Sequence record: PZ452595.1
DNA: 64,000 nt
Source of the DNA: a phage
Direction: 5' to 3' (one strand)
The translations under genes and the position numbers were made by a program. The notes under the pieces were generated by a model, which saw only the letters and a list, made by a program, of their open reading frames with translations, had not been told where the DNA came from and did no database searches. Below, in pieces: positions 2,972 to 46,244 of this stretch (within the stretch, counting starts at the first letter, position 1; every line of letters starts with the position of its first letter).

Positions 2972-3127
2972 TCAACTATTTTTAGAACCAATGTACGCGA
3001 ATAATGATAAAATCGCTAATACGCCCTGAGCTGATGCTTGTAAAAATACTGAAGTTTCTCCAGTTATTACTGTTCCGATGCATAAAAAGAACCAACAGAA
3101 AAAGGCTATACCGTGAACAAATTTCAT
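2972..3127 (-). CDS. small membrane protein (~51 aa), possibly ac (acridine sensitivity)
   Basis: Hand-translated MKFVHGIAFFCWFFLCIGTV...; size and position fit T4 ac by recall. Confidence 0.4.
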   Translation of the reverse strand: MKFVHGIAFFCWFFLCIGTVITGETSVFLQASAQGVLAILSLFAYIGSKNS

Positions 3128-21744: not shown

Positions 21745-21990
21745 TTATTCACCAGTTACTTTCCACAAATCTTCATTTGCAGCAATCCATTCAGTACGTT
21801 GATTTTCTTCATATACTGTAGAATATGCTGCTTTTTCTGAAGGGAATGTCTGGTAATGAGCACCAGAAATTTTGTGAACGTCAGAGTAAAGAGGGAAAGC
21901 TACGGAAATTTCCTTTCCTTCAATTTTCTTATTTCCATCTAATTTCTGCTCAAATGTTTTAATATTAACATAACCGCGAGTACTAGCCAT
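21745..21990 (-). CDS. soc: Soc, small outer capsid protein
   Basis: 81-aa ORF, MASTRGYVNIKTFEQ...WKVTGE matches T4 Soc; late promoter TATAAATA upstream. Confidence 0.9.
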   Translation of the reverse strand: MASTRGYVNIKTFEQKLDGNKKIEGKEISVAFPLYSDVHKISGAHYQTFPSEKAAYSTVYEENQRTEWIAANEDLWKVTGE

Positions 21991-22020
21991 GTAATTCTCC
22001 TTTTATTTAAATTACATGAT

Positions 22021-22028
22021 TATTTATA
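22021..22028 (-). promoter_or_regulatory. late promoter for soc
   Basis: Minus strand TATAAATA ~30 nt upstream of soc ATG. Confidence 0.6.
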
Positions 22029-22073
22029 ATAAATTCTCGCGGCTTTTAAGTCGTCGTTTAAATAAACGAGCTA

Positions 22074-22592
22074 TTAATAGCCTCGATCTTGACGTGCGAA
22101 ATTTTCGGCATTTTTCAGATAATAAAGTTTAAAGATTTCCTCAGCTGACATTCCAAGAGCAATAAATTTATTCATAAAAAAGTGAAATTGGTCAATCAGT
22201 TCAAATTTAATTTCAAGCTGATCTTCAGGAGATAAGTCTTGAATTTTCTTGGATTGCATTTCAGAATAACGTTTCTTCCAAGGTTTCCATACGGCAGAAG
22301 CTTCTTTTTCACCATTACTCATACCACCAAGAGAAGTATATAGCTCGCGAGTTTCATCTGCGATATAATCGTCTTGGTTTCGCAGCCAAGCAAGAACTTC
22401 TCCTGCGGTTTCAAGTGAATCAGGATGACGATTTGTTTCTGGCTTATCATTAGCCAAACGAATCTGTAAAGACCGCTGCATATCAAGCATAACCTGCAAT
22501 GGGTCTTTTTCATCACCGAGAATATCCCAGTATTCATTTTGAGCTTTATCAACACCTTCGATCAAATGAGCGCATTCATTAAAGTGAGCCAT
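22074..22592 (-). CDS. 56: gp56 dCTPase/dUTPase
   Basis: 172 aa from MAHFNECAHLIEG; track ORF has spurious GTG-initiated extension. Confidence 0.85.
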   Translation of the reverse strand: MAHFNECAHLIEGVDKAQNEYWDILGDEKDPLQVMLDMQRSLQIRLANDKPETNRHPDSLETAGEVLAWLRNQDDYIADETRELYTSLGGMSNGEKEASAVWKPWKKRYSEMQSKKIQDLSPEDQLEIKFELIDQFHFFMNKFIALGMSAEEIFKLYYLKNAENFARQDRGY

Positions 22593-22617
22593 TATTTTTC
22601 CTTTCAATTCATGGGTT

Positions 22618-22641
22618 AGTAGATTAATTATACAATAAATA
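22618..22641 (-). promoter_or_regulatory. MotA-box middle promoter upstream of gene 56
   Basis: TGCTTTA - 11 nt - TATAAT. Confidence 0.5.
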
Positions 22642-22663
22642 TATAAAGCAATAAGGAGGACAT

Positions 22664-22864
22664 ATGGTACAAAAATTAATGGCACTTGTTGATGCCATAA
22701 AAGGTAATAAGAAACGTATAGCTTTTACTATTTCTGCTATGGTAGGAATTTTACTCTGGAACTTTATTCTATCACCTGTTGCGATTGCACATGGTATTAA
22801 TATTCCAGTAGTTACTCTTGATACATTCGTAGATTTAGCATTTGCTTTAGTTGGGTTAATTTAA
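22664..22864 (+). CDS. small predicted membrane protein (66 aa), plus strand
   Basis: Perfect SD AAGGAGGA 6 nt before ATG; hydrophobic core; convergent with gene 61 (stop codons overlap). Confidence 0.5.
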   Translation: MVQKLMALVDAIKGNKKRIAFTISAMVGILLWNFILSPVAIAHGINIPVVTLDTFVDLAFALVGLI

Positions 22865-23889
22865 ATCTTGGCATATTTAGATAGCCGCATTTTAGCCATC
22901 AACCCCTGGGCAATATTATTTTTCATATATTCCATAATTTGTTCAGTGGTTGCACCTTCCTTTCTAATCATATCATTAACATCTTTTGATTTCCAGGGAG
23001 ATTTATCCCAAAACATAACCCTTTCTCCTGCATCAACTAATTTAGTCATTCGCTTAATAGTGTCAGGATGACGAGGTTCATTATCTAAAACCCACACACG
23101 TCTATCTTTAAATGGAACAACTTCTAGGTCTAATTGACCACCCGTAATAGCTATACCATTTTCAATAAAAAGTGAATCTATAGGTCCTTCTAGAACATAT
23201 ACATCACCATCTTTAACTCGTTCTACTCCATAGATTTTTGTTGCCTCAGGATAAGCTTTGATGGTGATATATTTTTGAGGAGCATCTTTCTTTAATGCAC
23301 GTCCTTGAAAAGACTCAGCTTTTCCATTAGCATTATAAATTGGAATAACAAGACGAGGCTCAGAAATTTCCTTTTTATATGTTCCCGGTGCTATACTATT
23401 AACTAATTTAGGCCATTCGGTTGTAAACCAAAGATATTTCCATTTATCCTTTGGAATACAACGAGCTTTTACGTATTTTATAATTGGATGGTCTTCCGCC
23501 AGTTTATCTAATCTAACACATGACGGAAGAGATTTAATTATTTTCTTTTCAGGTTGTTTAGGAAGTTCTTTAAGTTTTTCTACTGGACGGCTTTTACCTT
23601 TTTCTTTTCTTATTTCAAAGATATACTCACGATATAAATCAGGTTCAAACTCCTTTAAATATATTCCGATTGGTGCATGATAGTTACAGTTATAACAATG
23701 AATATTTCCTTCATTATTATCACCATAATACCATCCACGAGCTTTATTTTGGTCGGTTTTTGAATCTCCACAAACAGGGCATCTAAACCGTAATTTAAAA
23801 GTTGAACTATTATTTACTTGTGTGAATTTAGGTAAATGGGCTAATGCACGGTATGCAAACTCATTATCAATCCAAGGTATTGATGACAT
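22861..23889 (-). CDS. 61: gp61 DNA primase
   Basis: 342 aa as T4 gp61; zinc ribbon CPVCGDS...CYNC. Confidence 0.9.
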   Translation of the reverse strand: MSSIPWIDNEFAYRALAHLPKFTQVNNSSTFKLRFRCPVCGDSKTDQNKARGWYYGDNNEGNIHCYNCNYHAPIGIYLKEFEPDLYREYIFEIRKEKGKSRPVEKLKELPKQPEKKIIKSLPSCVRLDKLAEDHPIIKYVKARCIPKDKWKYLWFTTEWPKLVNSIAPGTYKKEISEPRLVIPIYNANGKAESFQGRALKKDAPQKYITIKAYPEATKIYGVERVKDGDVYVLEGPIDSLFIENGIAITGGQLDLEVVPFKDRRVWVLDNEPRHPDTIKRMTKLVDAGERVMFWDKSPWKSKDVNDMIRKEGATTEQIMEYMKNNIAQGLMAKMRLSKYAKI

Positions 23890-24057: not shown

Positions 24058-24684
24058 TTAACCTCTATTCATAAAAGCATTAAAAATTTGGTCATCAATA
24101 GAAACATTTACTTTAGACTGTTTTTCAGATGGCAATTCATATCCACATATTACAATTTTATGATCAATATCAAAATACACAGAAGCAATATGATTAATGA
24201 TATTTTCAGTGAAGTCTAAATCAACATCAATGTCTTTTTGACCAAAGCCCAAAGGATAAATAATGCGAGTAATTCGATTATCTTTAACAAAGATTCCACC
24301 GACATACTCTGTGCTGCGTTTAAAGTCTACACGCCGACGAAATGAAAAATATTCAGGCTCTTTATGAGCTCGGCTCATAGGGCACAACGAATAACTAGAA
24401 TAAGAGATGTCAAATCCTACGCCTTCAATATGAACTAAATTGTCATGATTAAACCAATTATAATCGTATGCCAAGTCCATTAGATTGTCATATGTGAAAG
24501 GCACCGGATTAACATCATTGGTCACAAGCATATAATTAGCAACTGCTATAATTTCATTATTTTTAACGAATACAAACCGTGATTGATGCGAATGGCCTGG
24601 ACCTGCGTTTTCACGATTAATGATATAACACTGGGCACCTTTATATGTGTACGTGTCTTTACACTTGTGCATTTGATAAAGCAT
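24058..24684 (-). CDS. hypothetical protein (208 aa) at the T4 61.2 position; candidate AdfA (anti-DarT)
   Basis: Position between 61 and sp; assignment from memory of T4 61.2, not verified. Confidence 0.55.
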   Translation of the reverse strand: MLYQMHKCKDTYTYKGAQCYIINRENAGPGHSHQSRFVFVKNNEIIAVANYMLVTNDVNPVPFTYDNLMDLAYDYNWFNHDNLVHIEGVGFDISYSSYSLCPMSRAHKEPEYFSFRRRVDFKRSTEYVGGIFVKDNRITRIIYPLGFGQKDIDVDLDFTENIINHIASVYFDIDHKIVICGYELPSEKQSKVNVSIDDQIFNAFMNRG

Positions 24685-45961: not shown

Positions 45962-46244
45962 GAGAAATAATTCCTTGGTAAGCCCAATAAGGAGGATTAA
46001 CAGAATCATCACCAGAATTTTCTTCAGGGAAATAAACCTGGATAACGAAGCCGGATTCATCAAAGGTGAAATAAGTAGTAGGCAGTTCACCTAACAAATC
46101 GGCACGAGCGTCGATTTCTTCGAGGTCTTGTTCACGTCCAGCCCAGAAGCTTGGGTTCAGACTACATTCATAGAAATAATAGTCATTACCGAACATATCA
46201 AAACCATTCCAACTCTCTACTACATACCGCTCAAAACTAATCAT
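45933..46244 (-). CDS. hypothetical protein (103 aa)
   Basis: ORF track. Confidence 0.5.
   Translation of the reverse strand: MISFERYVVESWNGFDMFGNDYYFYECSLNPSFWAGREQDLEEIDARADLLGELPTTYFTFDESGFVIQVYFPEENSGDDSVNPPYWAYQGIISRGTKLELKE

Follow-up and report, generated by a model that had tools for sequence, protein, structure and literature searches.

Identification of a lone plus-strand gene as dam.1

The lone plus-strand open reading frame (ORF) in the window (the whole stretch of phage DNA analyzed, 64,000 nucleotides) is, as judged from its sequence, a genuine protein-coding gene, namely dam.1 of the T-even phages (PHROG 2024). The gene is already known, as it is annotated in other phages, though it is uncharacterized. 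We consider it likely that the combined explanation holds, in which a genuine dam.1 is preceded by an inferred late promoter, its product resides in the inner membrane, and the interval that houses it between genes 56 and 61 is a common dam-less one. The features of this interval and its flanks, in window coordinates, are:

22074..22592, minus strand: gene 56 (dCTPase), left neighbor
22627..22651, minus strand: MotA-dependent middle promoter of gene 56, with Mot box TTGCTTTA (22651->22644), an 11-nt spacer, and -10 TATAAT (22632->22627)
22634..22641, plus strand: candidate gp55-type late promoter -10 element AATAAATA (consensus TATAAATA; A at -13)
22653..22660, plus strand: Shine-Dalgarno (SD) sequence AAGGAGGA, 3 nt upstream of the dam.1 ATG
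22664..22864, plus strand: dam.1 coding sequence, ATG to TAA in the ORF list, 66 amino acids plus TAA (MVQKLMALVDAIKGNKKRIAFTISAMVGILLWNFILSPVAIAHGINIPVVTLDTFVDLAFALVGLI)
22679..22698, minus strand: weak terminator-like hairpin (7 bp, 3 GC) and then TAATTTTTGT, oriented as gene 61 and lying within the 5' portion of dam.1
22861..22864, no strand: TTAA common to two convergent stop codons (dam.1 TAA at 22862-22864; gene 61 TAA as the complement of 22861-22863)
22861..23889, minus strand: gene 61 (DNA primase), convergent right neighbor

The preliminary description of the window had reported a plus-strand ORF of 66 amino acids that ends convergently with gene 61, and both points are borne out by the sequence and the ORF list. 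The two stop codons overlap in the 4-nt palindrome TTAA, an arrangement also present in T4, T2, T6, PhAPEC2, Marfa, and JS10. Genes 56 and 61, described as about 270 nt apart, are separated by 268 nt, and 71 nt lie between gene 56 and the start of dam.1. The ORF also proved to be as isolated on its strand as had been claimed: it is the sole plus-strand coding sequence among 89 in the first 50 kb (annotation of Shigella phage JK38) and, in the whole 64-kb window, the only plus-strand ORF of at least 40 amino acids with an ATG start that is not mostly under a minus-strand ORF. The ORF list contains several other hydrophobic plus-strand ORFs of 60–99 amino acids, all antisense shadows of real genes. 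Because such shadow ORFs recur on the T-rich plus strand, the length and hydrophobicity of dam.1 are not evidence by themselves.

The start codon is preceded by AAGGAGG at 22653-22659, which position 22660 completes to AAGGAGGA. The gap to the ATG is 3 nt (cat), or 4 nt if counted from GGAGG. Thus, the SD sequence is strong and its spacing workable, and the wording of a “perfect” ribosome-binding site at “ideal spacing” went slightly too far. Every genus examined has AGGAG(G) in the equivalent place. The only other copy of AAGGAGG in the window (45989-45995, plus strand) was rejected as a ribosome-binding site, as it has no ATG at a usable spacing and no ORF and represents a chance match inside a minus-strand gene.

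The closest record is that of Shigella phage JK38 (Tequatrovirus), in which the ORF is the coding sequence JK38_00030, a “hypothetical protein”. The name dam.1 is used in T4T (ADJ39749, T4Tp032) and T6 (AXN58073), and the homolog in the Mosigvirus PhAPEC2 is annotated as “similar to RB69ORF029w”. Dam.1 of T4T and T6 and RB69ORF029w are the same gene as the window ORF, equal to it in length, joined stop-to-stop with gene 61 in the same way, and likewise preceded by ATAAATA and AGGAGG. Residues 2-66 of dam.1 match profile positions 1-65 (of 65) of PHROG 2024, a family of unknown function, with an E value of 4.1e-31. By contrast with this full-length match, searches of Pfam at E values up to 10 and of NCBIfam retrieved no family. 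Tblastn with dam.1 retrieved 693 phage records, 686 of them at a coverage of at least 80%. The alignment with T4, T2, T6, and relatives that had been proposed as a check shows that the ORF is kept, with 95-98% identity in T4, T2, and T6 and about 52% in Mosigvirus. The T4 copy (NC_000866, 17738..17938; 97% identity) lies between dam and 61, inside a 309-nt gap in which the T4 reference record has no annotation for it.

A segment of 1,027 nt (22074-23100) with gene 56, dam.1, and the start of gene 61 is 100% identical to JK38 and shares 95-99% identity with T6, RB18, and about 125 other T-even phage records. Outside this segment, the window matches positions 1-50000 of JK38 at 89-98% identity, in blocks with indels, and therefore comes from a different, mosaic Tequatrovirus. 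An exhaustive phmmer search of 1.8 billion representatives produced eight matches and no relatives outside the T4-like phage group. Two long matches (P0032 and P0036) were discarded as repeat proteins whose similarity reflects composition or a coincidental “LLWN..SPAVANG”. The search of IMG/VR for related loci found only five, all near-identical, and a fold search of BFVD with the dam.1 model returned only its own family.

Homologs of dam.1 carry a variety of product names that are wrong or unsupported: “putative head morphogenesis protein”, “Holin”, “holin family protein”, “dCTP pyrophosphatase”, “DNA packaging ATPase”, and “thymidylate synthase”. The first of these (AP018813/AP018814) was dismissed as propagated noise, gene 61.1 bearing the identical label. 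Our literature searches found no paper naming dam.1 (with phage or bacteriophage) or RB69ORF029w and nothing relevant on T4 ribosome profiling or Ribo-seq. Neither dam nor unannotated ORFs come up in the CRISPRi-ART paper, and T4-type Tn-seq data are not reported in the accessible part of a phage Tn-seq preprint. Nor did the searchable literature yield a transcript, a ribosome footprint, a peptide, or other experimental work on dam.1.

Gene order between genes 56 and 61

The gene order is soc-segF-56-dam-dam.1-61 in T4, 56-dam-extra ORF-dam.1-61 in T2, and 56-dam.1-61 in T6, JK38, and the window. The preliminary description had thus correctly placed dam and segF around gene 56 in T4, but dam.1 itself is not a product of remodeling. 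T4, T2, and T6 all have dam.1 stop-to-stop with gene 61, a junction that is fixed across these phages, JK38, and the window, and only the slot between gene 56 and dam.1 differs. This slot holds dam in T4 and dam plus one ORF in T2, and it is empty in T6, JK38, and the window. A T4-type dam (at least 90% identity) is present in 182 phage records versus about 503 for dam.1 (at least 80% identity), and the compact dam-less layout is therefore the majority state. As read from these gene orders, the absence of dam and segF is an ordinary presence/absence polymorphism, as in T6, and belongs to the well-known mosaic gain and loss of these two genes. With neither dam nor segF, the compact 56-61 interval has the layout that is ordinary for T6 and most Tequatroviruses.

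On the other side of gene 56, soc (21745..21990) is separated from it by only 83 nt (21991-22073), which hold the soc late promoter TATAAATA (22021-22028, minus strand). The genes found between soc and 56 in other phages (segF in T4; soc.1 and soc.2 in T6 and T2) are all missing from the window. Therefore, the soc-56-61 region is here in its most compact form.

Conservation of the dam.1 frame

The family has two subfamilies, both of which match PHROG 2024 and adjoin gene 61. Subfamily A, to which the window ORF belongs, is found in Tequatro-, Mosig-, and Gaprivervirus. Dhaka-, Marfa-, Kanagawa-, and Gelderlandvirus carry subfamily B, whose members match PHROG 2024 with E values of 2.8e-28 and 4.7e-25; weaker matches to this subfamily come from many Klebsiella T4-like phages. 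Synteny with gene 61 is kept in each of the genera named. Subfamily B proteins (VR26 gp032, JS10, Marfa_028, ZX14 orf00083, and CGG41_026) resemble dam.1 in their position relative to gene 61, size, late-type signals, and helix (WN...P.A...G..LP.V), but differ in their N-terminus (MGTIFYQIWKL...) and in their C-terminus (...FFTGIPS), which is less hydrophobic. Across the family, the proteins are 61-74 amino acids long and have a central hydrophobic helix with an invariant W-N, P, G, P motif, which is also present in the window ORF. An alignment of 16 members identified W32-N33, P38, A40, G44, P48, V50, and G64 as invariant in both subfamilies.

Substitution patterns point in the same direction as these invariant residues. 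Synonymous sites are saturated between genera (pS of 0.64-0.93), yet the protein is still alignable, with 44-54% amino acid identity across genera. The dN/dS ratio (Nei-Gojobori) is 0.05-0.55 in every informative pair, and the variable sites of subfamily A are distributed 44/22/55 over codon positions 1/2/3. From these sequence comparisons, we conclude that purifying selection maintains the dam.1 frame in at least eight genera of the Tevenvirinae type.

Some relatives carry additional or altered copies of the gene. Gaprivervirus VR26 has subfamilies A and B in tandem (2495-2692 and 2701-2901, in locus coordinates), and the second (B) copy has its own SD sequence without a promoter of its own. 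The B copy is broken or partly deleted in TH40 (about 2700-2900) and SP18 (1399-1520), also in locus coordinates. The pattern in VR26, TH40, and SP18 looks like a snapshot of paralog turnover. In T6 (MH550421, locus 3091-3108, equivalent to window 22664-22681), the first dam.1 codon is ATT, not ATG (acatATTgtacaaaaattaATGgca), and annotators therefore place the start at Met6, which is 18 nt away from the SD sequence. Either AUU initiates in T6, or less or shorter dam.1 protein is made. In two unrelated records, T4_ev240 and vB_Eco_T-01, the A-run of codons 16-17 is one nucleotide shorter (AATAAGAAACG to AATAAAAACG, equivalent to window 22709-22715), which frameshifts dam.1. We considered these frameshifts as natural knock-outs showing dispensability and set them aside, as a homopolymer sequencing error is possible.

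A candidate late promoter upstream of dam.1

The element AATAAATA (22634-22641) is located 22 nt upstream of the dam.1 ATG and deviates from the late promoter consensus TATAAATA at a single position, -13. Its ATAAATA core occupies 22635-22641, and transcription would start at about 22647-22649. The order of ATAAATA, 16-22 nt upstream of the ATG, and then AGGAG(G) is shared by the window, T4, T2, T6, PhAPEC2, VR26, TH40, SP18, JS10, Marfa, and ZX14. Eight of the nine genera sampled have the upstream ATAAATA, the exception being Gelderlandvirus CGG4-1, which has only ATTAAATA. The element is a perfect TATAAATA in Marfa and ZX14, and position -13 is A in the window, G in T4 and T2, and C in Gaprivervirus. 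When T4 and T2, with dam upstream, are compared with the window and T6, with gene 56 upstream, nothing else is conserved upstream besides the ATAAATA and SD signals.

The promoter core is rare in the window. ATAAATA is depleted about 7-fold on the two strands (6 observed versus 40.5 expected) and the full TATAAATA is found 2 times versus 10.2 expected, which is consistent with selection against spurious late starts in an early-gene region. The composite ATAAATA-N10-24-AGGAG occurs twice on both strands of the 64 kb versus 0.27 expected, once at the known late gene soc and once at dam.1. The promoter-plus-SD composite at dam.1 is beyond chance. Furthermore, a published list of 50 T4 late promoter sites comprises 32 perfect ones and, as the most frequent variant, 9 with A at -13 (Geiduschek and Kassavetis, PMC2988020). 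T4 late transcripts are of either polarity (PMC2988020). The conservation of an otherwise depleted ATAAATA together with the SD sequence, the precedent for the A(-13) variant, and the occurrence of late transcripts in either polarity lead us to infer a gp55-dependent late promoter. This candidate probably drives dam.1 and is probably switched on late in infection. A T4 dRNA-seq data set with 150 transcription start sites exists, according to the accessible part of an NAD-cap preprint (bioRxiv 10.1101/2024.04.04.588121).

Besides dam.1, the window has just one late-type promoter-plus-SD unit, that of T4 soc, which is likewise a short late-type gene amid early and middle genes. Unlike dam.1, soc lies on the strand of its neighbors, has a perfect TATAAATA, and codes for a soluble capsid decoration protein, whereas dam.1 is on the opposite strand and codes for a predicted membrane peptide. 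The remaining ATAAATA sites are at 420 (minus strand), 24256 (plus strand), 49362 (minus strand), and 62605 (minus strand, a perfect TATAAATA). The site at 24256, inside gene 61.2, is directly followed by an ATG ORF of 34 amino acids (24263..24367) with no room for an SD sequence, and this plus-strand signal (24256-24367) is probably due to chance.

The gene 56 middle promoter had been placed on the opposite strand within the same 70 nt or so, and its MotA-box layout can indeed be read directly in the 71-nt gap. In T4, the equivalent is TTGCTTA-N12-TATAAT, to which record X01416 of 1984 gives the name P(M)16.53. The candidate late -10 element of dam.1 falls within the spacer of this divergent middle promoter. 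In T4 and T2, dam.1 comes after dam, whereas in the window, T6, and JK38 it is directly beside the gene 56 middle promoter. As a result of this proximity, the candidate late promoter and the middle promoter overlap in the window, facing away from each other.

The terminator-like hairpin on the gene 61 strand (22698..22679) is the one such site in the region versus a chance expectation of 1.1, and its centroid fold has an energy of -8.2 kcal/mol (z of -1.2). On the plus strand, no terminator-like sites were found between 22000 and 24200, so late RNA probably runs on, antisense to gene 61. Such RNA could be the main function of the locus, with the late promoter (22634-22641) producing an antisense transcript across gene 61 and beyond that shuts off primase and early genes and with the ORF playing a secondary part. 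Read-through into gene 61 is what the overlapping stop codons and the lack of plus-strand terminator-like sites would lead one to expect. Yet a purely antisense function needs neither a strong SD sequence nor an intact frame of 61-74 amino acids in 686 of 693 records, does not need dN/dS values of 0.05-0.55 with saturated synonymous sites, and leaves the VR26 tandem paralog with its own SD sequence unexplained. We regard it as unlikely that antisense RNA is the main function, although antisense-RNA and protein functions of the dam.1 locus are compatible and can coexist.

Predicted membrane topology of the dam.1 protein

As a protein-coding gene, dam.1 would yield a small membrane protein. The product has a GRAVY score of 1.25, with five K/R and three D/E residues, and its hydropathy (KD19) is highest, at 2.0, in the stretch of residues 23-41. 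The C-terminal segment (46-66) has a KD value of 1.7, yet it contains D53 and D57 and is less hydrophobic in subfamily B. AlphaFold2 (AF2), run with a 12-sequence alignment, returned a model with a pLDDT of 82 and helices at residues 2-12, 16-42, and 52-63. Hydropathy and AF2 agree on one clear helix at about residues 16-42, in keeping with the hydrophobic, transmembrane-like peptide described earlier. The model suggests one long membrane-spanning helix preceded by a short amphipathic N-terminal helix ending in KGNKKR and followed by a C-terminal helix that, at 12 residues, would be too short for the bilayer. Given the two Asp residues and the moderate hydropathy of the C-terminal segment, the protein may be either single-pass or a hairpin.

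Under the positive-inside rule, basic clusters remain on the cytoplasmic side of the membrane, which would place the N-terminus of dam.1 in the cytoplasm. The membrane-spanning helix contains the invariant Trp-Asn pair, and conserved Pro and Gly residues come after it. Asn residues midway along a helix are well known to promote the association of transmembrane helices. Thus, dam.1 most likely binds itself or another membrane protein through its conserved Asn. Small inner-membrane proteins are represented in T-even phages by T4 Imm, an 83-amino-acid superinfection immunity protein with two transmembrane segments. However, dam.1 has no sequence similarity to Imm (no BLASTP alignment at E values up to 100), and Imm is encoded on the early/middle strand, in contrast with the late-type signals of dam.1.

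A small hydrophobic protein with a predicted late promoter also invites comparison with holins. Class II holins and pinholins such as S68 of phage 21 are, like dam.1, about 65-70 amino acids long, hydrophobic, and expressed late (as predicted for dam.1), and two homologs are labeled “Holin” (UniProt, phage OE5505) and “holin family protein” (phage EAWsc9). The charged residues within the hydrophobic C-terminal segment of dam.1 would also suit a holin or pinholin-like hole former. However, the protein matches no curated holin family, whether in Pfam (at E values up to 10) or in NCBIfam. It lacks the charged hydrophilic C-terminal tail, ending in ...DLAFALVGLI with its last charge at D57, and the second helix in the AF2 model, about 12 residues, may be too short to span the membrane. 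The neighbors of dam.1 are genes 56 and 61, with no linkage to an endolysin. The two labels carry no experimental note, and clearly wrong labels sit on other homologs. T-even phages already use the T holin, which also counts against the idea. Hence, a hole-forming role for dam.1 appears very unlikely.

The chance that dam.1 is just an open frame in a spacer, its conserved bases serving the 56/dam promoters and the gene 61 terminator, is negligible: hydrophobic plus-strand ORFs of 60-99 amino acids are common by chance in this AT-rich window, the hairpin for gene 61 lies inside the ORF, and the T4 reference annotation omits it, but purifying selection excludes a chance frame for practical purposes, given the 44-54% amino acid identity across genera despite saturated synonymous sites, the skew of variable sites to codon positions 3 (55) and 1 (44) over 2 (22), the conserved SD sequence and ATG, and the WN, P, G, P, and G residues invariant in both subfamilies.

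Proposed role and significance

We propose that dam.1 would be transcribed clockwise, against the surrounding early and middle genes, from the gp55/gp33/gp45-dependent late promoter AATAAATA. The late transcript would have a leader of about 15 nt, like that of the neighboring late gene soc. The predicted product would insert in the inner membrane with the KGNKKR cluster in the cytoplasm and the short C-terminal helix at, or folded back into, the periplasmic leaflet. There, it may act by intramembrane helix-helix association via the polar Asn, either with itself or with a partner. A likely by-product would be read-through of the late transcript as antisense RNA into gene 61.

Lysis and lysis inhibition in T4 are already explained genetically by t, rI, rIII, e, and the spanins. 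We tentatively suggest, as one possibility, that dam.1 has an accessory role in which it modulates some event at the envelope late in infection, such as the timing of lysis, its inhibition, or the integrity of the membrane, and that it is not a primary holin. The roles in superinfection exclusion or toxicity raised in the preliminary description are guesses. A more doubtful proposal is that dam.1 is a late inner-membrane microprotein that has gone unrecognized in a T-even membrane phenotype and binds a phage or host membrane protein via its Trp-Asn helix. Such phenotypes would include lysis timing, lysis inhibition, late superinfection exclusion, or membrane-bound assembly.

For more than two decades, the reference annotation of T4 has lacked the gene. 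T4 is the reference of its phage family, and dam.1 stays invisible to omics and knock-down screens that use NC_000866 because that record leaves it in an unannotated gap. Flagging dam.1 as a probable late membrane microprotein leaves current concepts unchanged and offers T4 workers a small, cheap target. The value of the finding is modest and resides in an omission from the T4 annotation and in the signature of a probable late, opposite-strand membrane microprotein that is conserved across the Tevenvirinae.
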